A stretch of 15,119 nucleotides of DNA from Abditibacteriaceae bacterium (GTDB lineage Bacteria > Armatimonadota > Abditibacteriia > Abditibacteriales > Abditibacteriaceae). Under the pieces are notes generated by a model. That model worked only from the letters and a program-made list of their open reading frames with translations, did not search any database and had not been told where the DNA came from. Every line of letters starts with the position of its first letter. Position 1 is the first letter of the stretch. The stretch lies in NCBI GenBank assembly GCA_031425655.1, contig JANPJS010000071.1, positions 1-15,119 of the forward strand. Reading direction: 5' to 3'. The translations under genes were made by a program, and so were the position numbers. This document shows positions 257-14,558 of the stretch, piece by piece.

Positions 257-324
257 AATTTAAGGGCCGCGTTTTTGCTTAAAACAGCTATGCGGCATTG
301 CAAATGTTGAAAGCGGGCGATTAT

Positions 325-3294
325 ATGATGAACAATGGCGAAATTTCACTCCATCCCGGCAACCTTTCCTTCGCCGAAGCGATTTACGCCGAGTATCTAA
401 CGTCTCCCGAATCGGTATCCGCCGAATGGCGCGCCTATTTCGCCGATTGGAACGAACCCGCAGAAACGAACGGCCACTCCGCCAACGGTCACCAAACCAA
501 CGGCTTCAGCCCGCCCGCTGTGCATTCCAAATCGGCCAACGGCTCGTCGAACGGCACCCAAAACGGCAGTGTGACGGCGCGTCTGGGGCCGAGTTTTCGC
601 CCGGCGAGTATGTTCAACGCAATGGGCACCGGCATCGCGCAGAACTTCGCCGCGGAACAAGTCGTGGCCGCCGGGCCGGCGGAAATTCCCGTCGTGCCCA
701 AATCGGAGCACGAAAGCTTCGCCGCGATGCAGGATCGCGTGGATCAACTGGTTCGCGCGCACCGCGAGCGCGGTCACATGGTGGCGCGCATTGATCCTCT
801 GAATTTGCCGCGCGATTATCCGCCCGAAATTGACCCGGAATTTTACGGTTTCACGCCCGAAGACGAAGCGCGCACTTTTGCGTGCGAAACGCTCAGTCCC
901 GGCAAAATGATGCCGCTCTCCGACATTCTTTCGCAACTGCGCGAAACTTATTGTCGCACCGTTGGCGTGCAATTCATGCACATTGACGAATTGGATGTGC
1001 GCCTGTGGTTGCAGCATTATATGGAATCCACGCGCAACCGTTTGGCGCTGGGACGCGACGAGCAAGTGCGGCTTTTGACGCGCCTGACCGACGCTTCGAT
1101 TTTCGAGGAATTCATTCGCCGCAAATTCGTGGGCGCCAAGAGCTTTTCGCTCGATGGCTCGGAAAGCCTGATTCCCTTGCTCGACCGCGCCATCGAAAAA
1201 GCCGCCGCGCAGGGAACGGAAGAAGTTGTTATCGGCATGGCGCATCGCGGACGTTTGAACGTCTTGGCCAACATCATCGGCAAAAGCCCGCGCGAAATTT
1301 TCCGCGAATTTGAAGACCGCGACCCCGATTTGCACATCGGCGGCGGCGACGTGAAATATCACCTGGGTTATGCCAACGATTTTGAAACTGCCAGCGGCAA
1401 AAAAGTCCATCTGGCATTAAGTTTCAATCCCAGCCATCTGGAAATTGTGAACCCTGTCGCGCAAGGCCGGCTGCGTGCCAAAATGAGCCGCTGGAAAAGC
1501 GAAGTCGAGGGCGAAACGCGCGTCGGGCCGGACAAGGGTTTGTGCCTGCTCATTCACGGCGATGCGGCTTTTGCGGGCGAAGGCGTGGTGCAGGAAACGC
1601 TCAATCTGAGCCAGCTTAAGCCGTATTCCGTCGGCGGCACGCTGCACGTCATCGTTAATAATCAGATTGGTTTCACAACCGCGCCGTCCGAATCGCGCTC
1701 GACGCCGTATGCCACCGATGTCGCGCGGATGCTGCAAAGCCCGGTATTTCACGTCAACGGCGAAGACCCGGAAGCCGTCGCAGCGGTTGTCAACCTTGCA
1801 TTGGATTTCCGCCACAAGTTCCACCGCGATATAGTGATTGATATGTATGGTTATCGGCGGCTTGGCCACAACGAAACCGATGAACCGTCGTTCACGCAGC
1901 CTAAAATGTATCGCGCCATCAAAGCGCGCAAGCCGGTGCGTGAAGCTTATTTGGAGCAATTGCTCAAAATGGGCGACATCACGCAGCAGGAAGCGGATAC
2001 CATCGCCGAAAATCGCCGCGAGATTCTCGAAAAAGAATTGACTCAGGCGCGCAGCGACGACGCTTATGTGCCTTCGCACCTACGACGCACCGCGACCGGC
2101 TATCAAGGCGGCCCGGAGCCGCTGGACACAACCGTCACCGCCGTGCCGACCGAACGTCTTAGCACTCTGCTGGAATCGCTCACGCGCGTGCCCGCAGGCT
2201 TTTCGCCCCATCCGAAAATTCAGAAGATTTTAGATACCTATAAAGTGATGGCACGCGGCGAAGCGCCGCTCAACTGGGCCGCTGGCGAAGCGCTGGCTTA
2301 CGCGACTTTAGCCACCGAAGGCGTGCCGGTGCGCCTGACCGGACAAGATTCCGAACGCGGCACCTTTTCGCATCGCCACGCCGTTTTGCACGATGTCGAA
2401 ACCGACGAAACCTATCGCGCTTTTGATCACTTGGCGGCAGAGCAAGCGCCGGTCGAGATTTATAACAGTCCGCTTTCCGAAACCGCCGTTTTGGGTTTTG
2501 AATACGGTTACAGCCTCGATTGTCTGAGCGGTTTAACGATGTGGGAAGCGCAATTCGGCGACTTCTGGAACGTCGCGCAGCCGATTGTTGACCAGTTCCT
2601 CGTTTCCGCCGAAGACAAGTGGAATCACTTGTCGGGCATTACGATGCTGCTGCCGCACGGTTATGAAGGCATGGGGCCGGAGCATTCGACGGCACGCTTG
2701 GAACGCTTCATGTCCTTAGCCGCCGAAGACAACATTCAAATCGTTTATCCGACCACTCCGGCGCAGTATTTTCACTTGATTCGGCGGCAGGTTTTGCGGC
2801 GTTGGCGCAAGCCTCTTATCGTGATGTCACCCAAAAGCCTGCTGCGCCACTTGGAATGCACTTCGACGTTAGACGAATTGGCCACGGGCCGCTTCCAACG
2901 CATCATTCCCGACCAACTGGAGCGTCCGGCGGGTGAAGTCACACGGATTTTGCTGTGCAGCGGCAAAATCTACTACGAACTCGACGCCAAACGCGCCGCA
3001 TTGAAGCGCAACGACGTGGCGATTGTGCGTTACGAGCAGCTTTATCCTTATAGTCCTGAAACTCTGCAAGAAGTATTGGCGCCCTACGCGGACGGCACGC
3101 CAATTTTCTGGGTGCAGGAAGAGCCGATCAACATGGGCGCTTGGCGTCATATGCGGGTTTTCTACGGACACACGATGTTCGAGCGTCTCCCATTTACTCA
3201 CGTCACGCGCCCGGCGTCGTCCAGCCCGGCCACGGGTTCATCCAGCGCCCACAAAAAAGAGCAGGAAAAGCTGTTAAACGAAGCTTTCGCATAA
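325..3294 (+). CDS. sucA: 2-oxoglutarate dehydrogenase E1 component
   Basis: Motifs GMAHRGRLNVL, GDVKYHLG, NPSHLE, HGDAAFAGEGVVQETLN (ThDP-binding), RRLGHNE, GQDSERGTFSHRH, WEAQFGDF, LPHGYEGMGPEHS and WVQEEP. ATG 325 or 328 is more likely than TTG 298. Confidence 0.97.
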   Translation: MMNNGEISLHPGNLSFAEAIYAEYLTSPESVSAEWRAYFADWNEPAETNGHSANGHQTNGFSPPAVHSKSANGSSNGTQNGSVTARLGPSFRPASMFNAMGTGIAQNFAAEQVVAAGPAEIPVVPKSEHESFAAMQDRVDQLVRAHRERGHMVARIDPLNLPRDYPPEIDPEFYGFTPEDEARTFACETLSPGKMMPLSDILSQLRETYCRTVGVQFMHIDELDVRLWLQHYMESTRNRLALGRDEQVRLLTRLTDASIFEEFIRRKFVGAKSFSLDGSESLIPLLDRAIEKAAAQGTEEVVIGMAHRGRLNVLANIIGKSPREIFREFEDRDPDLHIGGGDVKYHLGYANDFETASGKKVHLALSFNPSHLEIVNPVAQGRLRAKMSRWKSEVEGETRVGPDKGLCLLIHGDAAFAGEGVVQETLNLSQLKPYSVGGTLHVIVNNQIGFTTAPSESRSTPYATDVARMLQSPVFHVNGEDPEAVAAVVNLALDFRHKFHRDIVIDMYGYRRLGHNETDEPSFTQPKMYRAIKARKPVREAYLEQLLKMGDITQQEADTIAENRREILEKELTQARSDDAYVPSHLRRTATGYQGGPEPLDTTVTAVPTERLSTLLESLTRVPAGFSPHPKIQKILDTYKVMARGEAPLNWAAGEALAYATLATEGVPVRLTGQDSERGTFSHRHAVLHDVETDETYRAFDHLAAEQAPVEIYNSPLSETAVLGFEYGYSLDCLSGLTMWEAQFGDFWNVAQPIVDQFLVSAEDKWNHLSGITMLLPHGYEGMGPEHSTARLERFMSLAAEDNIQIVYPTTPAQYFHLIRRQVLRRWRKPLIVMSPKSLLRHLECTSTLDELATGRFQRIIPDQLERPAGEVTRILLCSGKIYYELDAKRAALKRNDVAIVRYEQLYPYSPETLQEVLAPYADGTPIFWVQEEPINMGAWRHMRVFYGHTMFERLPFTHVTRPASSSPATGSSSAHKKEQEKLLNEAFA

Positions 3295-3365
3295 TTTTGA
3301 ATTTTGAATTTTGAATTATGAATGAGAGGCCGCAATTCAAAATTCATAATTTAAAATTCAAAATT
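3293..3365. repeat. Intergenic inverted repeat built from tandem heptamers (AATTTTG)n / (CAAAATT)n
   Basis: 31-nt arms at 3293-3323 and 3335-3365 pair at 28 of 31 positions around an 11-nt loop. Confidence 0.9.
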
Positions 3366-3380
3366 TCCTGAAAGGATTCT

Positions 3381-4766
3381 ATGCCGGTCGAACTCAAAGT
3401 GCCCGGAATGGGCGAATCGGTGTCGGAAGTCGAAATCGCCGAATGGCTCAAAAAAGAAGGCGACAGCGTCCAAATGGACGAGGACATCGTGGTTCTCGAT
3501 TCGGCGAAGACTTCGCAGCCGATTCCCTCGCCGATTACGGGCACGATTACCAAGATTCTCAAGTTGCAAGGCGAAGCCGCCAACATCGGCGATGTCATCG
3601 CGCTTTTGGAAGAAGGCGCCGCGAAAACCGATGCCAAAGCTGCCGACGCAACTCCGATTGTGCCCGCGCCGGAATGGGAAAAAAGCGACACGCAGGCCGA
3701 GGCCCCCAAAGCCAGCGCGGCCAAACCGGCGCAGGTGCCCTTAGACGCTCCGGCGCCCAAAGCCGAAGAAGCGCCGCCGATTTTGCCTCAGGAACCCGCG
3801 CACGATGCCGCGCCAATCTCCGAGGCAAAACCCGCTGACGCTTTCGTAATGCCCGCCGCCGCGCGCGAAATGGCGCAAAGCGGCATCGCGCCCGAAAGTG
3901 TCACGCCAAGCGGCCCCGGCGGGCGTGTGCTGAAAGAAGACGTGCAGCGCGCAAGTGCCGAACACGTAACGACCGAACGTGTCGCGCCAATTACGCCCGC
4001 GCCCGCTGCGCCGCAAGCCGTTTCAACTCCGATGCCAAAACCGGCACCCGCCGCACCGATTTCCGACGGCGAAGAAGACGTGGTGCCGATGACGATGATG
4101 CGCCGCCACATCGCGCAGCGCCTTGTCGAAGCGCAGCAAACCGCCGCATTGCTGACCACATTCAACGAAATTGACATGAGCGCGGCCATGTCGCTGCGCA
4201 AAGAGCATCAAGACGCCTTCACCAAAAAATACGGCATCAAACTCGGCTTCATGTCCTTCTTCGTAAAAGCCTCCGTAGATGCCTTGAAAGCGTTTCCCGT
4301 CGTCAACGCCGAAATTCGCGGACGCGACATCGTTTACAAAAATTACTACGACATCGGCGTTGCCATCGGCAGCGGCAAAGGCTTGGTTGTGCCCGTCCTT
4401 CGCCGCGCCGAACGCCTGAGTTTTGCCGAAGTTGAGCAAGGCATCGCTGCGTTCGCCGGTCACGCCAAAGCGGGCACGCTGAAACCCGATGATCTGGCCG
4501 GCGGCACTTTTACCATCACAAATGGCGGTATTTACGGCTCGCTGATGTCCACGCCGATTATCAATCCGCCGCAAAGCGCGATTCTGGGAATGCACTCGAT
4601 TCAAGAGCGCCCGATGGCCGTCAACGGCGAAGTCGTCATCCGTCCGATGATGTATGTCGCCCTGACTTACGACCATCGCCTGATTGATGGCCGCGAAGCC
4701 GTGAGCTTTTTAGTGCGCCTCAAACAATGCATCGAAAACCCGGCGCGTATGCTTTTAGAAGTGTGA
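3381..4766 (+). CDS. sucB: Dihydrolipoyllysine-residue succinyltransferase (OGDH E2)
   Basis: N-terminal lipoyl domain ([10 protein letters not shown]...DSAK), Ala/Pro-rich linker, E3-binding domain ([13 protein letters not shown]), catalytic domain ([43 protein letters not shown]). RBS AAAGGA upstream. Confidence 0.97.
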
Positions 4767-4774
4767 ACGTAGGA

Positions 4775-4901
4775 ATTAAACACAAAGACACAGAGACACA
4801 AAGGAACCACAAAGAAAATGAGGGAGTTTGCAGGCGTGATGCCTTTTAACCTTTCAAAATTCTTTGTGGTTCCTTTGTGTCTCTGTGTCTTTGTGTTTAA
4901 T
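4775..4901. repeat. Perfect 42-bp inverted repeat with 8-nt units (ACACAAAG/ACACAGAG) and a 43-nt loop
   Basis: The arm at 4775-4816 is the exact reverse complement of 4860-4901. Confidence 0.95.
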
Positions 4902-4911
4902 ATTTAAAACC

Positions 4912-6297
4912 ATGAACCAATTTGATTTAGTCGTGATCGGCGCCGGGCCGGGCGGATATGCAGCGGCGATTCGTGCCGCGCAGCTTGGCCTCAAGGTCGC
5001 CTGCGTGGAATATGAAGAAGCGTTGGGTGGCACTTGTTTGCGCGTCGGATGTATTCCCAGCAAGGCGCTGCTCGAATCGAGCGAGCAGTTTCACGTCGCC
5101 GGGCACGAGTTGGCGCAGCATGGAATCAAGGTTTCGGGCGTCGAACTCGACCTCGTGCAAATGCTGAAACGCAAAGACGAAGTCGTGCGAATGCTCACCG
5201 GCGGCATCGCAGGGCTGTTTAAAAAGAATAAAATCACGCGTTTTGCAGGCATCGCGCGGCTGGACGGAGCGGGCCGCGTCGTTGTGAAAAAGGGCGATGA
5301 CGAAACGGTTCTCGAAGCGAAAAATGTCCTCATAGCAACGGGCAGCAAATCGGCGCCGTTGCGCGGCGTTGAAGTGGACGGCGACCGCATCGGCACCAGC
5401 ACCGAAGCGCTGAATTACCCGTCTGTGCCCAAACACCTCGTTGTTATCGGCGCCGGTTATATCGGACTCGAACTCGGCTCGGTCTGGCATCGTTTGGGCG
5501 CCAAAGTCACGGTTTTGGAGTATCTCGACCGCATTTTGCCGGGCATGGATGCCGAAATCGCCAAAGAAGCGCAGAAGATTTTCACCAAGCAGGGCTTGGA
5601 GTTTCGTTTGGGCGCCAAAGTGACAAGCGCCAAAGTCGTCGGAGACGAGTGCGTAGTCGAATGCGAAGGCGCCGAAGCCGTGCATTGCGACCGCGTTTTG
5701 TTAGCCGTAGGCCGCATTCCCAACACCGAAGGGCTGAATTTGGAAAGCGCCGACGTGCAAACCGACAATCGCGGGCGCATCGTCGCCGACGCGCATTTTG
5801 CGACCAGCGCGCCGAATATTTATGCTATCGGCGATGTCATCGCCGGGCCGATGTTGGCGCACAAAGCCAGCGAAGAAGGCATCGCCTGCGTCGAATTTTT
5901 GGCAACCGGCTACGGCCACGTCAACTACGACACGATTCCCGGCGTGGCTTATACCAATCCCGAAATCGCCACCGTCGGCAAAAGCGAAGAGCAGCTCAAA
6001 GAAGCCGGCGTTGAATATCGTAAGGGCGTTTTTCCCTTTCAGGCCAATGGCCGCGCGCGAGCGTTGGCCAATACCGATGGCCGCGTCAAGATTTTAGCCG
6101 ACGCCAAAACCGACCGCATTTTAGGCGTGCATATCATCGGCCCGCGCGCCGGCGATCTCATCGCCGAAGCCGTCGCCGCGATGGAATTTGGCGCCAGTTC
6201 CGAAGACCTCGCGCGCACCTGCCACGCGCATCCGACACTGGCCGAAGCCGTCCACGAAGCCGCGTTAGCTGTTGATGGCAGGCCGATTCATATTTAG
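4912..6297 (+). CDS. lpdA: Dihydrolipoamide dehydrogenase (E3)
   Basis: VVIGAGPGGY FAD-binding fold, GGTCLRVGCIPSK redox disulfide, IGAGYIGLE NAD fold, HAHPTLAE catalytic motif. Start placed at ATG 4912 because the extension to 4864 runs through the repeat arm. Confidence 0.97.
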   Translation: MNQFDLVVIGAGPGGYAAAIRAAQLGLKVACVEYEEALGGTCLRVGCIPSKALLESSEQFHVAGHELAQHGIKVSGVELDLVQMLKRKDEVVRMLTGGIAGLFKKNKITRFAGIARLDGAGRVVVKKGDDETVLEAKNVLIATGSKSAPLRGVEVDGDRIGTSTEALNYPSVPKHLVVIGAGYIGLELGSVWHRLGAKVTVLEYLDRILPGMDAEIAKEAQKIFTKQGLEFRLGAKVTSAKVVGDECVVECEGAEAVHCDRVLLAVGRIPNTEGLNLESADVQTDNRGRIVADAHFATSAPNIYAIGDVIAGPMLAHKASEEGIACVEFLATGYGHVNYDTIPGVAYTNPEIATVGKSEEQLKEAGVEYRKGVFPFQANGRARALANTDGRVKILADAKTDRILGVHIIGPRAGDLIAEAVAAMEFGASSEDLARTCHAHPTLAEAVHEAALAVDGRPIHI

Positions 6298-6340
6298 CCG
6301 CTCAATCTGCGATTACTCGGAAAAACGCGACTTCTGAAAC

Positions 6341-6889
6341 ATGAAACCAAGTATCAATGGTGTTCTGCTTTTGCCGACAATCCTTCTATTCTCAACAATG
6401 AATGGCTGCGAACCTCGTAGAGACACCTTAATTGATCGTTATCCTTCTTTTCCAGATACGGAAACACGAAACGTGGCAAAGAAGATCAAAGCGTCCCAAG
6501 TAACTTCGGTTTCGATTCGAGCCTTCAGTAGGGGCGTCCACCGATCAATCAACATCACCGACCAGCGCGTCATAAAGCAGCTTCTTCTCGGTTTGACTCA
6601 TGCCACCGATACGAACATTCTGAACCAAGTGTCTCATGTGCAGTTGAACGGCTCACGCGGTAGCGTTCTGCTGTGGGAGAATTTTGCGCTCGATGGCCCA
6701 GAGCACGCGCTTAGTCCTGACTTCATCATTGGCCTGAAGCAAGCGGGCGTCATTTTGCCGTGGGAAGAAGCGGCGCGGCGGCGCCAGCAATGGACCTTTG
6801 GAGCGTTAGCCTGTGGCGGTATTCTTCTGCTTGGTTTGCTTCCATTGTGGCTGTTGACGCGGCGGCGCCCGCGAAAACAATTAAAATAG
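6341..6889 (+). CDS. Hypothetical membrane protein, possibly a lipoprotein with a C-terminal TM helix
   Basis: Fills the gap between lpdA and the ligase. Hydrophobic N-terminus ending ...FSTMNGC; C-terminal hydrophobic helix (FGALACGGILLLGLLPLWLL) followed by the basic tail TRRRPRKQLK. Confidence 0.6.
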   Translation: MKPSINGVLLLPTILLFSTMNGCEPRRDTLIDRYPSFPDTETRNVAKKIKASQVTSVSIRAFSRGVHRSINITDQRVIKQLLLGLTHATDTNILNQVSHVQLNGSRGSVLLWENFALDGPEHALSPDFIIGLKQAGVILPWEEAARRRQQWTFGALACGGILLLGLLPLWLLTRRRPRKQLK

Positions 6890-6897
6890 AGCGTTCC

Positions 6898-7617
6898 ATG
6901 CTCCTCCTCGATCTTTCTCTGCCTTTGCCCGCCGAAAACCTCGCGCTGGACGAAGCACTGCTTAACGAATGCGAAAGCGGCGCGTGCGATGAAGTCCTGC
7001 GCTTCTGGCAGACGCCTTCGCCATTTGTGGCTTTAGGCTATGTTTGCAAATGGCGCGACGAAGCCCACGTTGAAGAATGCCAGTCGCGCGGAGTGCCGAT
7101 TTTACGGCGCGCCAGCGGTGGCGGAACGGTTTTGCAAGCGCCCGGCGTGCTGAATTACGCGCTGATTTTACGCATCGAAAACGGCACGCCGACCGAAAAT
7201 CTCACAACGACAAACTGCTTTATTTTGCAGCGCAATCGCGCCGCATTGCAATCGCTGTTGTCCGGCGAAGTTTCGATTCGCGGCACTTCGGATTTGGCGC
7301 TTGGCGACCGCAAGTTTTGCGGCAACGCCCAACGCCGCCGCCAGAAATGGTTACTTTTTCACGGCGCGTTTTTGCTCGATTGCGATCTCGATTTGCTTTC
7401 CTCCGTCTTGCGCCCGCCGCCGCGCCAACCCAATTACCGCGCGCACCGCACGCACGCCGATTTCGTGATGAATCTACACTTGTCGGCAGAGAAAGTCAAA
7501 GCCGCGCTCCGCGAAATTTGGCACGCCGATGCGCCGCTTACCGATTGGCCACGCAACGCTATCGAAACCCTCGTAGCCGAAAAATACGCGCGCGACGAAT
7601 GGATTTTCAAGTTTTAA
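6898..7617 (+). CDS. Lipoate-protein ligase family protein (BPL/LplA/LipB catalytic domain only; LipM/LplA-like)
   Basis: Motifs NLALDEALL, VLRFW, RRASGGGTV, LNY, KFCGNAQ, HGAFL. Start at ATG 6898 avoids overlapping the upstream ORF. Lacks the LplA C-terminal domain. Confidence 0.88.
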   Translation: MLLLDLSLPLPAENLALDEALLNECESGACDEVLRFWQTPSPFVALGYVCKWRDEAHVEECQSRGVPILRRASGGGTVLQAPGVLNYALILRIENGTPTENLTTTNCFILQRNRAALQSLLSGEVSIRGTSDLALGDRKFCGNAQRRRQKWLLFHGAFLLDCDLDLLSSVLRPPPRQPNYRAHRTHADFVMNLHLSAEKVKAALREIWHADAPLTDWPRNAIETLVAEKYARDEWIFKF

Positions 7618-7637: not shown

Positions 7638-7705
7638 TCACCGCAGAGAACGCGGAGGACGCAGAGATTTAATTTTCTCTGCGTCCTCCGCGTTCTCTGC
7701 GGTGA
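7638..7705. repeat. Perfect 30-bp inverted repeat with 9-nt units (CGCAGAGAA/CGCGGAGGA); probable bidirectional terminator between convergent genes
   Basis: The arm at 7638-7667 is the exact reverse complement of 7676-7705, with loop TTTAATTT. It lies between the stop codons at 7617 (+) and 7713 (-). Confidence 0.9.
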
Positions 7706-7712
7706 ATGTTTC

Positions 7713-9227
7713 TCAAGCCGCGAAGCCACAGGCCAACAAAAGCGCCTCAATTTCCGCCGGAGTCGCCTCGACTTTGTGCGCGGCGCGGCGCAAATCGTCG
7801 GCGTCTACGGGATACCAGTTGCTGCGGTCGGCGCGTGTCAGGCCGGCGATATTTATCGGTTCGATGGCCTGCAAAATTTGCTCACGCGAGGCGCCATTTT
7901 CGAGGCACGCACGCAGCGCCGGGCCAAAAGTCGGATGATCGTGCATCAAAAATCCGCCGGCAAGATGCGGGCGCTTCAAACGGCGCGCAGTTTCCGCATA
8001 ACTCGCGGCGGCGAAGTAAAGAAGAGACAGCGCCGCGAACTTCTCGAAGTCGTTCATCGAGCGATAAAGTGCGCTAACCATTCGCGCCGTAATTCGCACT
8101 TCGCTTCGGGTTTGCGCGGCGTAATTGTGCAGATTTTTCACCCCGCGCGGCGTGTTCCAATCATGCTCAAAAAACTCGGCCAAGCGCGCAATGCCAAGCA
8201 GCGTCAGCGGAAATCCCGTCGAAAGCAGCGGATCAACGAAGCCCGCCGCCGACGGTAAAAGCGCCCAGTTCTCGCCCGCGATTTGGCCACTGCAAAACGC
8301 CAATCGCGGCGCATACACAAAAGGCTGCGTGGCGCGTGAGCCTTCAAATTGCGCGTTAATCGTCGGAAAGCGCGTCAGTAATCGCTGCCACGCAGCGGCG
8401 CCCTCACGCAAATTTAATTCGTTCGCCAATTCGTCGCGCAATGCGAATCCGGCGCTGGTCAGGCCGTTATTAAAACGCAGAACCCACATCCAGCCGCCGT
8501 CGAAAACGTGATGCAGTGCGGCATCGTCGGCAGGATACGGTGTCGCGGAATTATCGAAAACGCCCATTTCATCCAGCCGCTTCACGCCTTCAAAATGCGA
8601 ATAAAGAGCCTGCGTTGGCGGCAAAACCGGCAACACTTCTTCGCCTAAATTCAGCGCGCGATGCAAAAAGCCGCGCGGGCCGGTGGCGTCTACTAAAAAA
8701 CGCGCGCGACACGCAAAATCTTGTCCTTGCCGCGTGCCGCGAAGCGATACGCCGTCGTCAAAACGCGGCGCTTCCAGCGCGATTCCGTCTCCATATTCGA
8801 CGCCGCAACGCGCGGCTTCTTCGACGAAAAAAGCATCGAAGTCGGGGCGAAACCAATGCGTATCGGCGATGCCGTCGTGCGGGCTGGCCGCAACTAATAA
8901 TTGATCGCGCCGCGCGCCGGAAAATGCTTCGCCCGGCGCGTGATGCAAAAACGTAAAGCCGCGTTTGAGTCCACAGCCGATTTCGGGATAGGACTGCTGC
9001 CACGCGCCCCACTTGCAAAAAGGCAAAAGGCGCGGCAAATCGTAGCGTGTGGCCAACTCTTCGAGCAGCAAATTGGCAAGAGGCGTAGACGATTCGCCAA
9101 TCGCAAAGCGCGGATGCCGGCCTTTTTCGAGCAGAATAACGCGCAAGCCCAGCCGCCGCGCGATCATCGCCAGCAGCGAACCGCCGAAGCCGGAACCGAT
9201 AATGGCCAAATCGAAATCAGTTTGCAT
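7713..9227 (-). CDS. Flavin-dependent halogenase-like FAD oxidoreductase (PrnC/CtcP-like)
   Basis: IIGSGFGG Rossmann fold, HPRFAIGESS, GLKRGFTF (candidate catalytic Lys), HWFRPDFD, LHHVFDGGWMWVLRFNN (variant of WxWxIP), AGFVDPLLSTG. Confidence 0.8.
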   Translation of the reverse strand: MQTDFDLAIIGSGFGGSLLAMIARRLGLRVILLEKGRHPRFAIGESSTPLANLLLEELATRYDLPRLLPFCKWGAWQQSYPEIGCGLKRGFTFLHHAPGEAFSGARRDQLLVAASPHDGIADTHWFRPDFDAFFVEEAARCGVEYGDGIALEAPRFDDGVSLRGTRQGQDFACRARFLVDATGPRGFLHRALNLGEEVLPVLPPTQALYSHFEGVKRLDEMGVFDNSATPYPADDAALHHVFDGGWMWVLRFNNGLTSAGFALRDELANELNLREGAAAWQRLLTRFPTINAQFEGSRATQPFVYAPRLAFCSGQIAGENWALLPSAAGFVDPLLSTGFPLTLLGIARLAEFFEHDWNTPRGVKNLHNYAAQTRSEVRITARMVSALYRSMNDFEKFAALSLLYFAAASYAETARRLKRPHLAGGFLMHDHPTFGPALRACLENGASREQILQAIEPINIAGLTRADRSNWYPVDADDLRRAAHKVEATPAEIEALLLACGFAA

Positions 9228-10194
9228 TCGCGCAAAATCCGCACGTCACTGACGGCAAAACCTGCTGTTCAAAATTCATGGCTTGCAGACGTAAGCGGCG
9301 CGCTTGGAAGCAGTGAATACACGTCGAAAACTGCTCTAAATCCCATAAATCAGCGAAAACGCGACCGCGCCGCAACGTGACGCCGTAATCTGTCGCGTTT
9401 TCCAGAGTTTGCAGGCGCGGCGGCGACCATTCGCCGCGCGATTCCAAAACTTCCATCGCGCCGTTGCCGCGTCGCGTGGGAATCAGCGCCACGACATCGG
9501 CGCCGCAATCGAAAGCGAAATCCGTCGAGCGGTTCGCCCACAATAACGCTTCACTTTCGTCCATAAACGGCGGCTTTACCAGCACAAAAGCGCGCAGCGC
9601 AATATCGTTGTCGCGCAGCATTCGCGCCGCGCGGGCGAAATCGTCCGGCGTTGCGCGTTTATTGAGGCGTTCGCTGACTTCGGGATGAATTGTTTCCAAG
9701 CCCATCGCCACTTCGAGAGCCACGCCGTGCGCGCCCAGCAAATCTCGAAAGCGCCAACACGAATCGCCAATCAACGTTGGATGAGATTCGACAATGACAC
9801 GCTCGAAACCCGCTAATCGTGCGGCAATGAATTCATAATCTTCGCTGGGAATCGCGCGAGGATCAAAAAAGCTACCACTATTATAAAGCTTGATTTTCCG
9901 CGCGTCGGGAAGTTGCTTTAACGCTAAATCAATTTGCGCCGGAATCGCGCCGGGCGGCACCGATTCAGTGAGCGTGTGCCGCCACAAATCGCACATCAGG
10001 CATTTCCACGGGCATTCGCGATTGGTCAGCAGCAGCGTTGCGACCGGCACGATTTCGCCAGACGCGGCGCGCTCGTCTTCGACCCAGAAAGCGTGTGGCC
10101 GAAAGGCGTCCACTTTGCCGCGCGGCACGTTTTCGCGCTGCTGAATTATCCAGCGGTCACGGTCGCGCGGCGCAGTGGGATAAAGGGAAACCAT
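9217..10194 (-). CDS. Radical SAM protein, RaSEA/TIGR01210-like
   Basis: CxxxCxxC (CPWKCLMC), IKLYNSGSFFD, VESHP, EVAMGLET, VLVKPPF, and C-terminal CIHC...CGFC. Overlaps the halogenase start by 11 nt. Confidence 0.85.
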   Translation of the reverse strand: MVSLYPTAPRDRDRWIIQQRENVPRGKVDAFRPHAFWVEDERAASGEIVPVATLLLTNRECPWKCLMCDLWRHTLTESVPPGAIPAQIDLALKQLPDARKIKLYNSGSFFDPRAIPSEDYEFIAARLAGFERVIVESHPTLIGDSCWRFRDLLGAHGVALEVAMGLETIHPEVSERLNKRATPDDFARAARMLRDNDIALRAFVLVKPPFMDESEALLWANRSTDFAFDCGADVVALIPTRRGNGAMEVLESRGEWSPPRLQTLENATDYGVTLRRGRVFADLWDLEQFSTCIHCFQARRLRLQAMNFEQQVLPSVTCGFCANAN

Positions 10195-10207
10195 GTGCGA
10201 ACTAAAT

Positions 10208-11419
10208 TTACGGCGCAGACATGCGGCTCAGGAAGAGAATAGCACCCGACTCGCTTTCTTGAATCGCCATCACGAACGGGCGGTTGGCGATGAACGTGAA
10301 CGGCGTGGGCGCGGCGCCGCGCAGCATGGTCATGCCGGTGGCTCCGGCGGCTTCGGTGCCCGATTCGTTGACTTCGATCACGGTTTTGTGCTTTACCTGC
10401 GAAATCCACACCGGTTTTTCGGGCGTCAGGTTGGAAAAATCGGCGTGCTGCGCGCTGAACGCCGATTTCATGCCCAATGCGGCCAGTATTTTGTCCAAAT
10501 CGGCGGAGGCGCTCAGTTTCACTTTCGGCAATTTGATGGTGCCGGGTTCGGGCATTCGCGATTGCGCCCATTCGCGCCACGTTTTGGCATCAAGACTGTT
10601 CAGCAGCGCATCCACCGAAATCTTGCCTTTGGGCAGCGCGATGGTCATTTGGTAGCGCCCGCCTTCGTAAGGCAATGTCAGCACTTGCGCCTGTTTGGCG
10701 TCCACATAGTTGAAGTCGCCGGTTTGCTCCATGAACGGCACCGAGCGTTGGCCCGACGGCGAAAAGAAGGGGCCGGGGCGCGTTTTCGCGGGGTCGAACT
10801 TCGTTTGCCACTGCCCTTTGAAGTAAACGGCGTTCACCAGCACAAGCACGCCGCTGCTGTCCAGCGCATCGAGGATGCCGGGAATTTTGCCGCCGGTGTT
10901 TTGGCGCACAAAATCGTTGATGCCGCGCAGTGTGGACGGCGATGCAAAATCGGCGCTCCGGGTGCGCGCCGCGAAAAACTGCTGCGCGTTTTTCAAAAAC
11001 TGGGGCTTGATGGCGGCGCTTTTGTTCGTCCACACGCCATTGGCGACGGCGACACGAGTGTGCGGCCCAGCCTTGGTCATCAGCGCACTAAGTTCACGAT
11101 TGGCGACGTTTAACTGGGCCGGAGTCATTTTTTTTGCACCCAGCAATTGTGCGATTTCCTGCCGGGTGCGGCCCGCCGCTCCGCTATGAGCCAGCGCCAA
11201 CGCGCTGGCCACGCTGTAAGGCGAAACGCACACCGAAGCGTTTTTCTTGCCTGCGGCCACGCGGCGCAACAGCTTAAAACCAAACTCGTTGTAGCCGTCG
11301 GCCAATGGCATGATGGCGCCCACCTTGCCATTTGGCTGACCGTGCGCCGACAACGTGCCGAAGAGGCACTGGCAACCCCACACGGCAACCGCACTGGCCA
11401 TCAAAAATCGTTTGTCCAT
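10208..11419 (-). CDS. Secreted serpin-family protease inhibitor
   Basis: Signal-peptide-like N-terminus. Serpin motifs SPYSVASALAL, GAAGRTRQEI, INDFVRQNTGGKIP, LVNAVYFKGQW, LPKVKL, hinge EVNESGTEAAGAT, FIANRPF. Purine-rich RBS region (AGGAGAGGGAG). Confidence 0.95.
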   Translation of the reverse strand: MDKRFLMASAVAVWGCQCLFGTLSAHGQPNGKVGAIMPLADGYNEFGFKLLRRVAAGKKNASVCVSPYSVASALALAHSGAAGRTRQEIAQLLGAKKMTPAQLNVANRELSALMTKAGPHTRVAVANGVWTNKSAAIKPQFLKNAQQFFAARTRSADFASPSTLRGINDFVRQNTGGKIPGILDALDSSGVLVLVNAVYFKGQWQTKFDPAKTRPGPFFSPSGQRSVPFMEQTGDFNYVDAKQAQVLTLPYEGGRYQMTIALPKGKISVDALLNSLDAKTWREWAQSRMPEPGTIKLPKVKLSASADLDKILAALGMKSAFSAQHADFSNLTPEKPVWISQVKHKTVIEVNESGTEAAGATGMTMLRGAAPTPFTFIANRPFVMAIQESESGAILFLSRMSAP

Positions 11420-11471
11420 GATTCACTCACTCCCTCTCCTACTTTGCGGGGCAGGCACCCAAAAGTGAGCG

Positions 11472-11501
11472 TTAGATAGAACGCGGCGCGGAAAATGTTC
11501 C
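11472..11501 (-). promoter_or_regulatory. Possible ECF-sigma-type promoter upstream of the serpin
   Basis: The minus strand reads GGAACATTTTCCGCGCCGCGTTCTATCTAA, a GGAAC -35-like box and a TCTA -10-like box, in the only sizeable gap within the block. Spacing is imperfect. Confidence 0.25.
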
Positions 11502-11544
11502 ATCAAGCGTGACAAGGGCCACATTTTTCGCGTTTGCGCCGGTT

Positions 11545-12864
11545 TTATCCATAAATCGCATGAAACGATTTGCGATACTCGGCCTCGCGCGACGGCAAAT
11601 GCTGATGCAATTTTTCTTCGGACATCGCGCCGTGTTGAAAACGCCGCTTGGGAAACACCGGCATTTCCATTCCCGTCACGGCACGCACGCCGCGCGCCAC
11701 GACTTCGCCTTTGAGAGCATAAAGCCGCGTCACGTCATATTCGGTCAGCGATTTAAAGGGAATCGCTTCGGCCACTTCGACGACTGCGGGACGAGTAAAC
11801 GGGCTAAAAGCATCGAAATTGTAACGGCGCGCCGGTGCGTAGGTTCGCACATAAGAACGGCTCAGCCCGCCGCTGTAAGTCAGAGAATGCTTGATTTTGC
11901 CGACGCCCCAGCCTTCCTGATACAGCATCACGTTGTTGATGACGCTGTTAATCGTCAGTTCAGGATTGACTTCGATGGGATAGTCTTTGAGATTTTCATC
12001 GCCGCCGTCGCCATCTAACAGGAAGCGCCAATCGGGATAGCGTTCGCGGATGCCCCGGCACAAAGCCAGTCCCATCGCGGCGCATTCGATGTCGAGAGGC
12101 TTGTAATCTTCGACGACGCGCACGGTTTCGCGCGCGTCCATCGCGCTGGCCGCGCCGGTGATTTCTTCGAGAAAAAGACCCAAATCTAAAGCGCGCAAAA
12201 ATTCGCGCGCTTGTTCCAAATCCGGGCCGTCGCCCATGTTCAGCGTAAAGGCTTTGAGACGCGCCGGACTGTGCCCAAGTGTGCGTAAAACGTGATACGT
12301 CGTCAGGAAAACCGCGCCGCTGTCAACGCCGCCCGAAAAACAGATGCCAATCGGCTCGCGTGCAGGAATCGCTTTCACCCATTTGGCGATTTCTTCGGCT
12401 AAGGCGCCGATGTAAGCTTTACCGATAAAGTCCAAGTCGGGCGGCAGCGTGCCGGGCATTGGTTCGAAGAAGCGCGTGTAAACCGGATCAGGGTCGGGAC
12501 AACCGATGAGTTGGATTTCGACGACGTAATGCGCGGGAACCATGCGCGTGTAGCTGGGATGAAATTGGTCACCAAAGCCTGCTTCGTTTAGCCAGTCGCG
12601 GATCGCATCCATGCGGTCGGCGACGATTAAAGCCGGGCCTTCCTGCCGCTTGGCCAGAAAATATCTCAGTGGCCTATCCAGAGAGCGCGCCAGCCGCACG
12701 GTTTTGCCTTCGCGCGCCAACAACGCGAACGAGCCGTCAATAGCGCGCACGGCGTCCGGCGCGCCGCTGAGAATGCGCGCTCGCGCGTCCTCGACGCTCA
12801 TGTTGAAAATGCGGTTGGTGGCGGGATCAGTCAAATCCACCACGCGCTCGATATATTGTTGCAT
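11545..12864 (-). CDS. Asparagine synthetase-like ATP pyrophosphatase/amide synthetase lacking the glutaminase Cys1
   Basis: PP-loop CFSGGVDSG, DGDGGDE and C-terminal PKRRFQHG. Only a degenerate Ntn remnant is present (IDGSFAL...LARSLDRPLRY); the N-terminus is MQQY. RBS AAAGGA. Confidence 0.85.
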   Translation of the reverse strand: MQQYIERVVDLTDPATNRIFNMSVEDARARILSGAPDAVRAIDGSFALLAREGKTVRLARSLDRPLRYFLAKRQEGPALIVADRMDAIRDWLNEAGFGDQFHPSYTRMVPAHYVVEIQLIGCPDPDPVYTRFFEPMPGTLPPDLDFIGKAYIGALAEEIAKWVKAIPAREPIGICFSGGVDSGAVFLTTYHVLRTLGHSPARLKAFTLNMGDGPDLEQAREFLRALDLGLFLEEITGAASAMDARETVRVVEDYKPLDIECAAMGLALCRGIRERYPDWRFLLDGDGGDENLKDYPIEVNPELTINSVINNVMLYQEGWGVGKIKHSLTYSGGLSRSYVRTYAPARRYNFDAFSPFTRPAVVEVAEAIPFKSLTEYDVTRLYALKGEVVARGVRAVTGMEMPVFPKRRFQHGAMSEEKLHQHLPSREAEYRKSFHAIYG

Positions 12865-12872
12865 AAATTCCT

Positions 12873-13178
12873 TTACGTCAGTCGAAGTTTGGGCCGTCCC
12901 GATGGCGGCAGAGGCGGCGGTTCGTCGCGTTGATTCGGGTCGAAGTGTTCAAGATGAATGCTGGGCACATTGACCGTGCTTGGCAGGTCTTCGAGATCGG
13001 CGTAATCGGATTCGTCCCAATCCACCCACACAGCGATGGTGCCGCGCGGCGCATCGTGACGGCTTGATAAAACGCGCCCTGTCAGACCGACCAGAGAAAC
13101 CGTCGGCGAGAGCATGGTGCGCCCGCCAATGACGACTTTATCGTTGAGTTGAAAGCCTCGCACTTCTTGTTTTCTCAT
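12873..13178 (-). CDS. Small hypothetical protein (101 aa), possible SH3/KOW-like barrel with a Pro-rich SspB-like tail
   Basis: Its ATG overlaps the amidohydrolase stop (ATGA, 13175-13178) and it ends 8 nt before the synthetase start. Beta-strand pattern FQLNDKVVIG...GLTGRV...IAVWVDW. Confidence 0.7.
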   Translation of the reverse strand: MRKQEVRGFQLNDKVVIGGRTMLSPTVSLVGLTGRVLSSRHDAPRGTIAVWVDWDESDYADLEDLPSTVNVPSIHLEHFDPNQRDEPPPLPPSGRPKLRLT

Positions 13179-14479
13179 AATGCGGCCTTCACCAAACGCG
13201 CGGCGCGGCGCTGCGATTCGGCGCAAATGCGCGGGGCATCCAACGTTGTTAGCACGCCTTTACGAAGCAGAATTTCGCCGTTGACTAAAACCGTATCCAC
13301 GTCACCGGCGCCGGCAGAATAGACAAGATGCGACACCACATTGTGGCGTGGATAAAGGTGCGGTTTGTCGAAATCCACGACGGTAATATCAGCGCGTTTG
13401 CCGACTTCGAGGCTGCCAATGCTGTCGCCAAGATTCAGACAGCGTGCGCCATCGCGCGTGGCCATGAGCAAGGCTTGCTGCGCCGAAATCGCCGTCGGAT
13501 CGCCGCTCGTGCCTTTGTGCAGCAGCGCGGCAAAACGCATTTCCTGCCACATATCGAGCTTGTTGTTGGAAGCGGTGCCGTCCGGGCCAAGCCCAACTTT
13601 GATGCCTGCTTTCAAGTATTCGGAAATCGGCGCGAAGCCGCTGGCGAGCTTCAAATTCGAGGTTGGATTATGCGCCACGCGCATATCGTGGGCGCGCATC
13701 AATTCGATGTCGCCTGCTTCGGGATAAACGCAGTGCGCCGCCAAAAGCGGGCCTTGCATTGCGCCGATGTTGTGCAAAGTTTGAATTGGTGCCGCGCCCC
13801 ATTGCGTTGTCACGTCCGCCACTTCGCGGCGCGTTTCGGCGGCGTGCGTGTGAATCGGCACCTTTAAATCGCGCGCGACTTTGATAATCGCGGCCCATTG
13901 CTCACGGTCGCAAGTGTAAAGCGAGTGCGGCGCCATAAATGGCGTAATACGCCCGTCGCCTGCGCCTTGAAACTCGCGCACAAAAGCGGCGCCTTTGGCG
14001 ATGCGCTGCATCGGTTCGGGTAAAAAGCCCAGCAAAACCGCACCGGGACAAGCGCGAATGCCGCTTTCGAGCATCGCTTGCACGCCTTGCTCGTAGAAAA
14101 AATACATATCGGCGAAGCAAGTCGTGCCGCCGCGCAGCATTTCGGCAATGGCCAGCAGAGTGCCCCAATAAACGTCTTCGGCTTCCAAGTTGGCCTCAAA
14201 AGGCCAGATTTTCTCGCTGAGCCACGGTTCCAGCGCCATATCATCGGCATAGCCGCGCATCAGCGTCATCGCGGCGTGCGTGTGCGTGTTGACCAAGCCG
14301 GGCATGGCCACCAAATGCGCGCCGCCAATGACGGTTTCGGCATCGAAAACGGGCGCGTTTTGCGCCGCGCCAACGTAAGTGATGCGCGAATCTTCGATAT
14401 GAAGCGCGGCGTTTTCGACGACTTCAAAGGCGCCGTTGCAAGTCACGGCGGTGATGGGAGAAAGAGCGATTTTCGACAT
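13175..14479 (-). CDS. mtaD: Amidohydrolase, 5-methylthioadenosine/S-adenosylhomocysteine (or 5'-deoxyadenosine) deaminase-like
   Basis: Motifs PGLVNTHTHAAMTLMRGYADD, WLSEKIWPFE, EMLRGGTTCFADMY, PHSLYT, HAAET, AHCV, HNPTSNLKLASG, GPDGTASNN, GSLEVGKRAD. Start at ATG 14479. Confidence 0.75.
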   Translation of the reverse strand: MSKIALSPITAVTCNGAFEVVENAALHIEDSRITYVGAAQNAPVFDAETVIGGAHLVAMPGLVNTHTHAAMTLMRGYADDMALEPWLSEKIWPFEANLEAEDVYWGTLLAIAEMLRGGTTCFADMYFFYEQGVQAMLESGIRACPGAVLLGFLPEPMQRIAKGAAFVREFQGAGDGRITPFMAPHSLYTCDREQWAAIIKVARDLKVPIHTHAAETRREVADVTTQWGAAPIQTLHNIGAMQGPLLAAHCVYPEAGDIELMRAHDMRVAHNPTSNLKLASGFAPISEYLKAGIKVGLGPDGTASNNKLDMWQEMRFAALLHKGTSGDPTAISAQQALLMATRDGARCLNLGDSIGSLEVGKRADITVVDFDKPHLYPRHNVVSHLVYSAGAGDVDTVLVNGEILLRKGVLTTLDAPRICAESQRRAARLVKAAL

Positions 14480-14521
14480 CGGAAGTTGTTGAATGCCCGC
14501 ATTAAGGATAATGCGAACCCG

Positions 14522-14558
14522 CAAAAACAGCGAGACAGCCGATTTTTGGCTGTCTCGC
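14522..14558 (-). terminator. Rho-independent terminator after the small acidic ORF
   Basis: On the minus strand: 11-bp stem GCGAGACAGCC, loop AAAAATC, GGCTGTCTCGC, then TGTTTTTG. Confidence 0.75.

Follow-up and report, generated by a model that had tools for sequence, protein, structure and literature searches.

A Conserved Three-Gene Unit

What could three co-oriented enzyme genes make together when no carrier protein gene accompanies them? The question is raised by a contig of an Abditibacteriaceae bacterium (JANPJS010000071.1, C71), whose whole length of 15.1 kb (15,119 nucleotides, nt) is the window analysed here and which belongs to a 97% complete genome of 5.98 Mb (G000). The minus strand of the window encodes a predicted adenylating ligase of the asparagine-synthetase fold that lacks Cys1 (P0003; 11545–12864; 439 amino acids, aa), a radical S-adenosylmethionine (SAM) enzyme related to RaSEA (P0002; 9217–10194; 325 aa; PF04055) and a flavin-dependent halogenase-type enzyme related to PltM and CtcP (P0001; 7713–9227; 504 aa; PF04820). 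This trio is a real conserved genetic unit and amounts to a genuine, uncharacterised pathway whose enzymes belong to known families. Our overall reading, in which we place slightly less than even confidence, is that it would be a carrier-free, three-enzyme route yielding a diffusible aromatic amide, which is likely halogenated and possibly made for the beta-propellers of the ASPIC/UnbV family.

The first-pass annotation of the window had described three co-oriented genes, the last two overlapping by 11 nt and the first separated from them by a serpin gene, and the coordinates, the strand and the overlap were all confirmed. It had also noted the lack of nonribosomal peptide synthetase (NRPS), polyketide synthase (PKS) and carrier protein genes; indeed, a family scan of the nine open reading frames (ORFs) of the window gave zero matches to NRPS, PKS and acyl or peptidyl carrier families. 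It had further asked whether the three genes occur together across phyla without the serpin, which both loci and genome profiles bear out. Among 111 ligase-bearing loci, which are partly redundant and some of which were retrieved by querying with the radical SAM gene, the radical SAM gene follows the ligase gene in 71 of the 79 that have at least 1.5 kb downstream. The three genes stand together in loci from Abditibacteriaceae, Verrucomicrobiota, Acidobacteriota and Planctomycetota, mostly in the order ligase, radical SAM enzyme, halogenase.

The genome profiles agree with the loci. In 151 genomes of the window's phylum, the ligase was found in 25, the radical SAM enzyme in the same 25 (plus one weak match in an unrelated context) and the halogenase in 25, all three being present in 24. 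The trio is fully linked in 14 of these 24 and split over loci in 10, with no two genes linked in 3; some of the splits may be assembly breaks, but in a single-contig genome (G022) the halogenase gene lies about 68 kb away. The exceptions are one genome without the halogenase (G074, 88% complete) and one with the halogenase only (G091). Outside this phylum, the ligase was found in 46/121 genomes of one verrucomicrobial order and in 15/121 genomes of one acidobacterial order. A draw of 151 genomes across the verrucomicrobial phylum had returned only the centre genome (G152; 1/151), which is why the survey there was narrowed to the order of that genome; the trio is confined to sub-lineages.

The ligase gave zero plasmid matches, and a search of the ESM Atlas brought back only clusters of the trio's own family. 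A profile search of 10 selected non-carriers, made without a positive control, found no diverged copies of the trio. One metagenome-assembled genome holds, next to the intact copy of locus L001, a second and heavily frameshifted copy of the whole trio (L023:6626-10554), which was excluded from the alignments. Apparent fusions were set aside: those of ligase and radical SAM enzyme were rejected as evidence since the ligase halves are truncated, probably by frameshifts, and those of radical SAM enzyme and halogenase were not used since they are mostly partial (P0274 and P0275 being single-member clusters).

The Ligase

The ligase matches PF00733 at 48.7 bits and falls far below the asparagine synthetase B family TIGR01536 (45 bits versus a cut-off of 267.1). 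A sequence search with single ligase or radical SAM sequences against solved structures gave no match. The predicted structure of the ligase (predicted local distance difference test, pLDDT, 88) was then compared by Foldseek, in which the top match was beta-lactam synthetase (E 1.5e-12), and by VIA-align, which gave Z 24.7 for AsnB, 24.1 for beta-lactam synthetase and 20.6 for CarA, within a range of Z 19-25 when TsnB9 is included. Both domains of the AsnB/beta-lactam synthetase fold are present, namely an N-terminal nucleophile (Ntn)-like domain and a PP-loop adenylation domain (SGGxDS). The PP-loop reads SGGVDS at 177-182, with S177, G179, D181 and S182 invariant, and the remnant N-terminal Ntn domain contains an invariant GCPDP motif (Cys122). 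Across phyla, the ligase is about 70% identical.

The claim that the ligase lacks the glutaminase cysteine was borne out: a Cys was present in the first 12 alignment columns in 0/57 homologues, and the structural alignment with AsnB (root-mean-square deviation 3.3, 360 residues aligned) begins at residue 40 of the Escherichia coli enzyme. Since Cys1 is missing, on-board glutamine hydrolysis cannot supply the nucleophile of this enzyme, although free ammonia may serve. Carboxylate adenylation is the chemistry common to the AsnB-type family, and adenylation followed by amide formation is quite likely the activity of the ligase, which would activate a small aromatic acid by adenylation and couple it with an amine other than glutamine. 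A complex prediction for the ligase with the radical SAM enzyme scored 0.00 and was counted neither way.

Asparagine-synthetase-like enzymes are also described as forming lactams, peptide amides and nitriles, and those acting on peptides include the lasso cyclases, TsrC and PesC (PMC13060819). The latter group raises another possibility, which is that the trio modifies a protein post-translationally (the propellers, prepilin-like DUF1559 proteins or an unlinked peptide), as lasso cyclases or quinone-cofactor maturases do. However, no conserved short ORF was found within 700 nt upstream of the ligase gene in 85 loci, and the sole PF13471 match in G000 is on another contig (C100); the precursor peptide and the B1/B2 proteins by which a lasso peptide cyclase is recognised in a cluster do not accompany the trio. 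Further evidence on this possibility comes from the flavoenzyme and the propellers, discussed below.

The Radical SAM Enzyme

The only NCBIfam match of the radical SAM enzyme is RaSEA (TIGR01210), at 115.3 bits versus a cut-off of 212.15. Its cluster motif is C61-x3-C65-x2-C68, and this CX3CX2C spacing is present in 19/19 sampled trio members, whereas 25/26 RaSEA-like rows have a longer one (CX6-10CX2C). Four C-terminal cysteines (C292, C295, C318 and C321), each present in 66/76 rows, are common to the RaSEA-like rows. A quick, unrooted tree without an outgroup separated the 19 trio members, on a long branch, from 26 RaSEA-like proteins of archaea and bacteria (Shimodaira–Hasegawa-like approximate likelihood-ratio test, SH-aLRT, 100), and 17 positions conserved in the trio family differ from those of RaSEA-like proteins. 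Judged from these sequence comparisons, the enzyme is a relative of RaSEA that lies outside the RaSEA family. RaSEA thus stands as the nearest family of what had been called a RaSEA-like enzyme, but the cut-off, the clade, the motif and the partner all differ.

As to the partner, the ArcS domain PF17884 was not found in G000 (97% complete), whereas three archaeal controls were positive. ArcS transfers lysine, RaSEA converts the adduct and the two act as a complex (PMC11298593). Because the trio enzyme is outside the RaSEA family and the genome has no ArcS partner, RaSEA-type cleavage is an analogy only; the proposal of an "attach then radical-cleave" route is a fair analogy that draws no argument from membership in RaSEA. 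The radical SAM enzyme would act on the ligase adduct, either cleaving or cross-linking it, and C–N cleavage of the RaSEA type is a possible but rather doubtful form of this step.

If the likeness to RaSEA were taken literally, the trio would make a modified transfer RNA or DNA base via an archaeosine-like route, as the first-pass annotation had suggested next to a halogenated metabolite. RaSEA is the sole NCBIfam match, the four C-terminal cysteines are common to both, and QueC is encoded elsewhere in G000. Yet, besides the missing ArcS domain, the separate clade and the different cluster motif, no transglycosylase or RNA-binding gene is among the recurring neighbours, which are instead secreted and transport proteins, and the trio is patchy within genera. 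A base as the product is therefore very improbable, and this branch of the earlier proposal finds no support in the present data.

True RaSEA-family enzymes may themselves serve natural-product chemistry. One bacterial protein that, at 231.7 bits, exceeds the RaSEA cut-off is encoded directly after a single-module NRPS (condensation–adenylation–thiolation–thioesterase, C-A-T-TE) at L116:1221-6479 (G149), and bacterial relatives are numerous.

The Flavoenzyme

WxWxIP is a motif of flavin-dependent halogenases, and the flavoenzyme of the trio has W246-x-W248, in which W246 is invariant and W248 is present in at least 90%, with IP replaced by LR relative to PltM. Its best matches among solved structures are CtcP (E 4e-49) and PltM (E 1e-48), and its profile match to PltM has an E of 3e-78. 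It keeps the flavin adenine dinucleotide (FAD) motif GSGFGG, and G11, G13 and K88 are invariant in 25/25 sequences; Lys88 aligns with PltM Lys87, which is catalytic in that its mutation abolishes activity (PMC6424973). The enzyme had been labelled a PrnC-like halogenase: the halogenase motifs are indeed kept, while the closest solved enzymes are the phenolic halogenases PltM and CtcP, and no PrnC sequence appeared among the matches obtained. Halogenation rather than hydroxylation is probably its activity, and the enzyme would halogenate the aromatic ring wherever this third gene is present.

Weak NCBIfam matches to QhpG, GoxB and LodB, all far below the cut-off, would suit the modification of a protein. 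However, the flavoenzyme is far closer to halogenases that act on free substrates.

Propellers, Transport Genes and the Proposed Pathway

If the three enzymes act together, an important question is what uses their product. The one broadly recurring neighbour of the trio is an FG-GAP/ASPIC-UnbV propeller, whose gene lies inside 20/84 loci. The corresponding family, PF07593, was found in 25/25 carriers of the window's phylum (median 11 matches, with at least 4 in 24/25), in 15/15 acidobacterial carriers and in 9/9 further carriers, so that all 49 of the carriers checked have propellers; at least 4 copies were found in 5/126 non-carriers of the window's phylum. In the acidobacterial order, the trio stands in a conserved block with tetratricopeptide repeat (TPR)-propeller, propeller and RnfD-like genes; an ATP-binding cassette (ABC) importer of the NitT/TauT type, with a CxxxC motif in its binding protein, is often encoded next to it. 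G000 carries the same propeller, RnfD-like and importer parts on other contigs (C215 and C158).

The RnfD-like membrane protein was found in 21/25 carriers versus 5/126 non-carriers of the window's phylum, and in 15/15 carriers versus 3/106 non-carriers of the Acidobacteriota, where it is encoded at most 7 kb from the ligase in 13/15. For the CxxxC binding protein of the importer, the counts are 20/25 carriers and 5/126 non-carriers of the window's phylum, these five being the same as for the RnfD-like protein; genes kept without the trio in five genomes are the pattern expected of salvage. The family matches of these partners are PF07593, "ASPIC and UnbV", for the propeller and only a weak one to PF03116/rnfD for the membrane protein. 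The propeller and the membrane protein may be orthologs of the enediyne proteins E4 (UnbV) and E5 (UnbU), respectively. In the propeller model, the closest match is murine CRTAC1, followed by a dehydratase, lectins and integrins.

Co-occurrence, folds, catalytic motifs and linkage to propeller and transport genes are observed, and the chemistry proposed for each enzyme above is predicted. The three enzymes very likely make one shared product. This would be a single diffusible aromatic amide, made without a carrier protein; the secreted ASPIC/UnbV propellers would be its most likely users, binding it as a ligand or cofactor, although this assignment is tentative, and, in two phyla only, transport or salvage of the molecule would fall to the RnfD-like protein and the ABC importer. 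A fuller version of this scheme is more speculative and rather unlikely in all its parts: the trio would build a halogenated cofactor or ligand for ASPIC/UnbV (CRTAC1-like) propellers via lysine-type amide ligation and radical C–N cleavage, much as pyrroloquinoline quinone (PQQ) serves quinoproteins. Some genomes would make this molecule, others would salvage it with the importer alone, and an RnfD-like protein would carry it.

The propellers also bear on protein modification by the trio. One in-frame fusion of a radical SAM enzyme and a propeller, identical in two databases, would favour it, as would the adjacency of 6/8 propeller genes of about 600 aa in G000 to prepilin-type genes. On the other hand, a comparison of propeller orthologs from 11 carriers and 6 non-carriers found no column that is invariant in the carriers and different in at least four of the six, a result more in keeping with a diffusible ligand, or with no link at all, than with a modified residue. 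Taken with the upstream regions and the flavoenzyme, protein modification is improbable.

Another explanation would be that the product of the trio is a secondary metabolite, signal or metal chelator that stands alone, and that the propeller, RnfD-like and importer genes share an island or a lifestyle with the trio, or serve only the uptake of this product. Many propeller-rich genomes lack the trio, the RnfD-like ortholog and the importer were not found in verrucomicrobial carriers, and the conserved CxxxC of the binding protein, together with the adjoining small CxxC protein (L126, L068 and L069), would suit metal uptake; moreover, the product of PltM is a small chlorinated phenol (PMC6424973). 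However, propellers are present in all 49 carriers checked and the propeller gene lies inside loci from at least four lineages. The trio is, moreover, kept even when scattered, and such persistence is unusual for a dispensable secondary-metabolite cluster. This explanation is unlikely, if a serious one.

Points Against a Product for the Propellers

Several observations weigh against a halogenated amide made for the propellers. Of the 106 acidobacterial non-carriers, 73 have PF07593, many with several copies, so in the genomes checked the trio implies a propeller but the reverse does not hold; propeller copy number, which distinguishes carriers in the window's phylum, does not do so in the acidobacterial order and was abandoned as a general marker. 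A close RnfD-like ortholog was found in 0/46 verrucomicrobial carriers, where the search gave weak homologues in three carriers and one strong match in a non-carrier, and the RnfD-like protein was rejected as an obligate partner on this ground. The importer was found in 0/5 verrucomicrobial carriers, in a search without a positive control, whereas all five have propellers. No cofactor-binding dehydrogenase is among the matches listed for the propeller model. The radical SAM–propeller fusion may be a lost stop codon, since it is a single sequence whose junction contains a signal-like segment and a Met; such a read-through shows adjacency more than fusion.

The enzymes themselves also give pause. 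Several positions conserved in RaSEA differ in the radical SAM family of the trio. Glu49 of the PltM pocket is Leu50 in the flavoenzyme, which is why the substrate is probably not phloroglucinol. The halogenase gene does not follow the ligase–radical SAM pair in eight of the loci whose downstream sequence is long enough (L070, L071, L075, L081, L082, L085, L089 and L099), several of which look Bacteroidota-like from their neighbour genes (one ESM Atlas cluster is commonest in Bacteroidota), and it is missing in 2/5 verrucomicrobial draft genomes and in G074. The halogenase is an optional member of the trio; its putative loss in anaerobes would suit an enzyme that depends on oxygen. Finally, the genomes are related by descent and the counts are not independent events, for which reason no p-values are attached to the co-occurrence.

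Surroundings of the Trio

Between the ligase and radical SAM genes of the window lies the serpin gene (10208–11419, minus strand; 403 aa; PF00079, E 2e-106), which is outside the conserved unit. Among all loci retrieved, a serpin was found only in the two cut from the window, and its third-position G+C is 0.74 versus 0.62-0.67 in the four flanking genes; it is therefore regarded as a local insertion. The protein is a secreted-type bacterial serpin and the sole match in G000. Upstream of the ligase, and likewise outside the unit, are an amidohydrolase gene (resembling methylthioadenosine/S-adenosylhomocysteine, MTA/SAH, deaminases; PF01979, below NCBIfam cut-offs) and a gene for a 117-aa hypothetical protein (together 12873–14524, minus strand), both of them family-level neighbours, which beyond the window stand beside the ligase only in loci L015, L024 and L026.

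The three large plus-strand ORFs, judged from their translations alone, look like the E1, E2 and E3 components of a 2-oxoglutarate dehydrogenase; with a lipoate-protein ligase gene, they occupy 298-7617 and are convergent to the trio. In L007 and L005, too, lipoyl-dependent genes lie close to the trio, and in L136 close to the ligase, probably by chance. Just 3' of the halogenase gene, between the convergent genes, is a long inverted repeat (7640-7705), possibly a terminator, possibly a dispersed repeat; a promoter and terminator scan gave a result near chance.

Other observations concern the neighbours of the propellers and of the importer. The prepilin-type genes (DUF1559-like, H-X9-DG) that adjoin six of the eight ASPIC/UnbV propeller genes of about 600 aa in G000 are on contigs C1, C34, C46, C120, C187 and C263 (L106 and L107), and the genome has 41 prepilin-like ORFs, which suggests a propeller–pilin partnership. 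A membrane protein of about 200 aa that has paired His motifs but matches no Pfam family is encoded repeatedly near the propeller/RnfD-like block (L127:16789-17385, L100:6371-6967, L062, L090 and L118) and was not found in G000. The CxxxC binding protein is followed by the small CxxC protein and a DUF169 protein (L126:2415-3543, L068 and L069), hinting at metal handling. The PAP2 family includes vanadium haloperoxidases; a PAP2-family protein, for which NCBIfam gave only a weak acid phosphatase match, is encoded near the trio/propeller block at L100:4763-6301. A 3-deoxy-D-arabino-heptulosonate 7-phosphate (DAHP) synthase gene lies inside three related clusters (L081, L085 and L099), which hints at a shikimate-derived ring.

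Comparison with Known Systems

A description of the trio was not found in the literature searched, which left subscription journals largely outside. The trio is a compact, three-gene, directly expressible pathway in three little-cultured groups. Its radical SAM enzyme represents an uncharacterised family with kinship to RaSEA, its glutaminase-less ligase is very conserved, and microbial organohalogens may originate from it. For the widespread ASPIC/UnbV family, which is not known to have a ligand, the link to propellers gives a testable handle, and the cofactor reading, if true, would assign a biochemical function to propellers found all the way from bacteria to vertebrates (CRTAC1) and, in addition, to the enediyne E4/E5 proteins.

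With beta-lactam synthetase, CarA and AsnB, the trio ligase shares the two-domain fold and the PP-loop. It differs in an identity of only 11-20%, in the loss of about the first 39 AsnB residues including Cys1, in invariant motifs of its own (GCPDP, QEGWG and KRRFQ) and in its surroundings, since none of the cluster partners known for these enzymes was recognised among the recurring neighbours. The flavoenzyme likewise keeps the FAD motif, the catalytic lysine, the WxW and the DP..S.G loop of PltM, a phloroglucinol halogenase, and of CtcP, a tetracycline 7-halogenase, but the match stops at about residue 400, the pocket Glu49 is a Leu and the trio has no polyketide context.

The ArcS–RaSEA pair of archaeosine synthesis in Euryarchaeota contains the nearest named family of the radical SAM enzyme, RaSEA, with the C-terminal four-cysteine site common to both, and in the trio, too, an amine-attaching partner would be encoded with the radical SAM enzyme. 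However, the trio enzyme is below the family cut-off, in a separate long-branch clade, has the CX3CX2C motif and has no ArcS in its genome, and its partner is an ATP-dependent AsnB-fold ligase rather than a transglycosylase homologue. The ammosamide cluster offers another likeness, in that Amm20, an asparagine-synthetase-like amidotransferase, and Amm3, a flavin halogenase, tailor one aromatic core (PMC12715798). The ammosamide pathway needs a scaffold peptide and PEARL ligases, neighbours that do not recur at the trio, and the part of that source consulted describes no RaSEA-like enzyme (PMC12715798).

For the system as a whole, the closest logic is that of PQQ and mycofactocin, in which one biosynthesis operon and an importer serve many client enzymes. 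At the trio, neither a precursor peptide nor PqqD was found, and the propellers are putative clients. The likeness to PQQ and mycofactocin lies in the distribution across genomes, in which some would make the product, others have the importer only, and a putative client family is expanded; this pattern holds in two of the three lineages tested.

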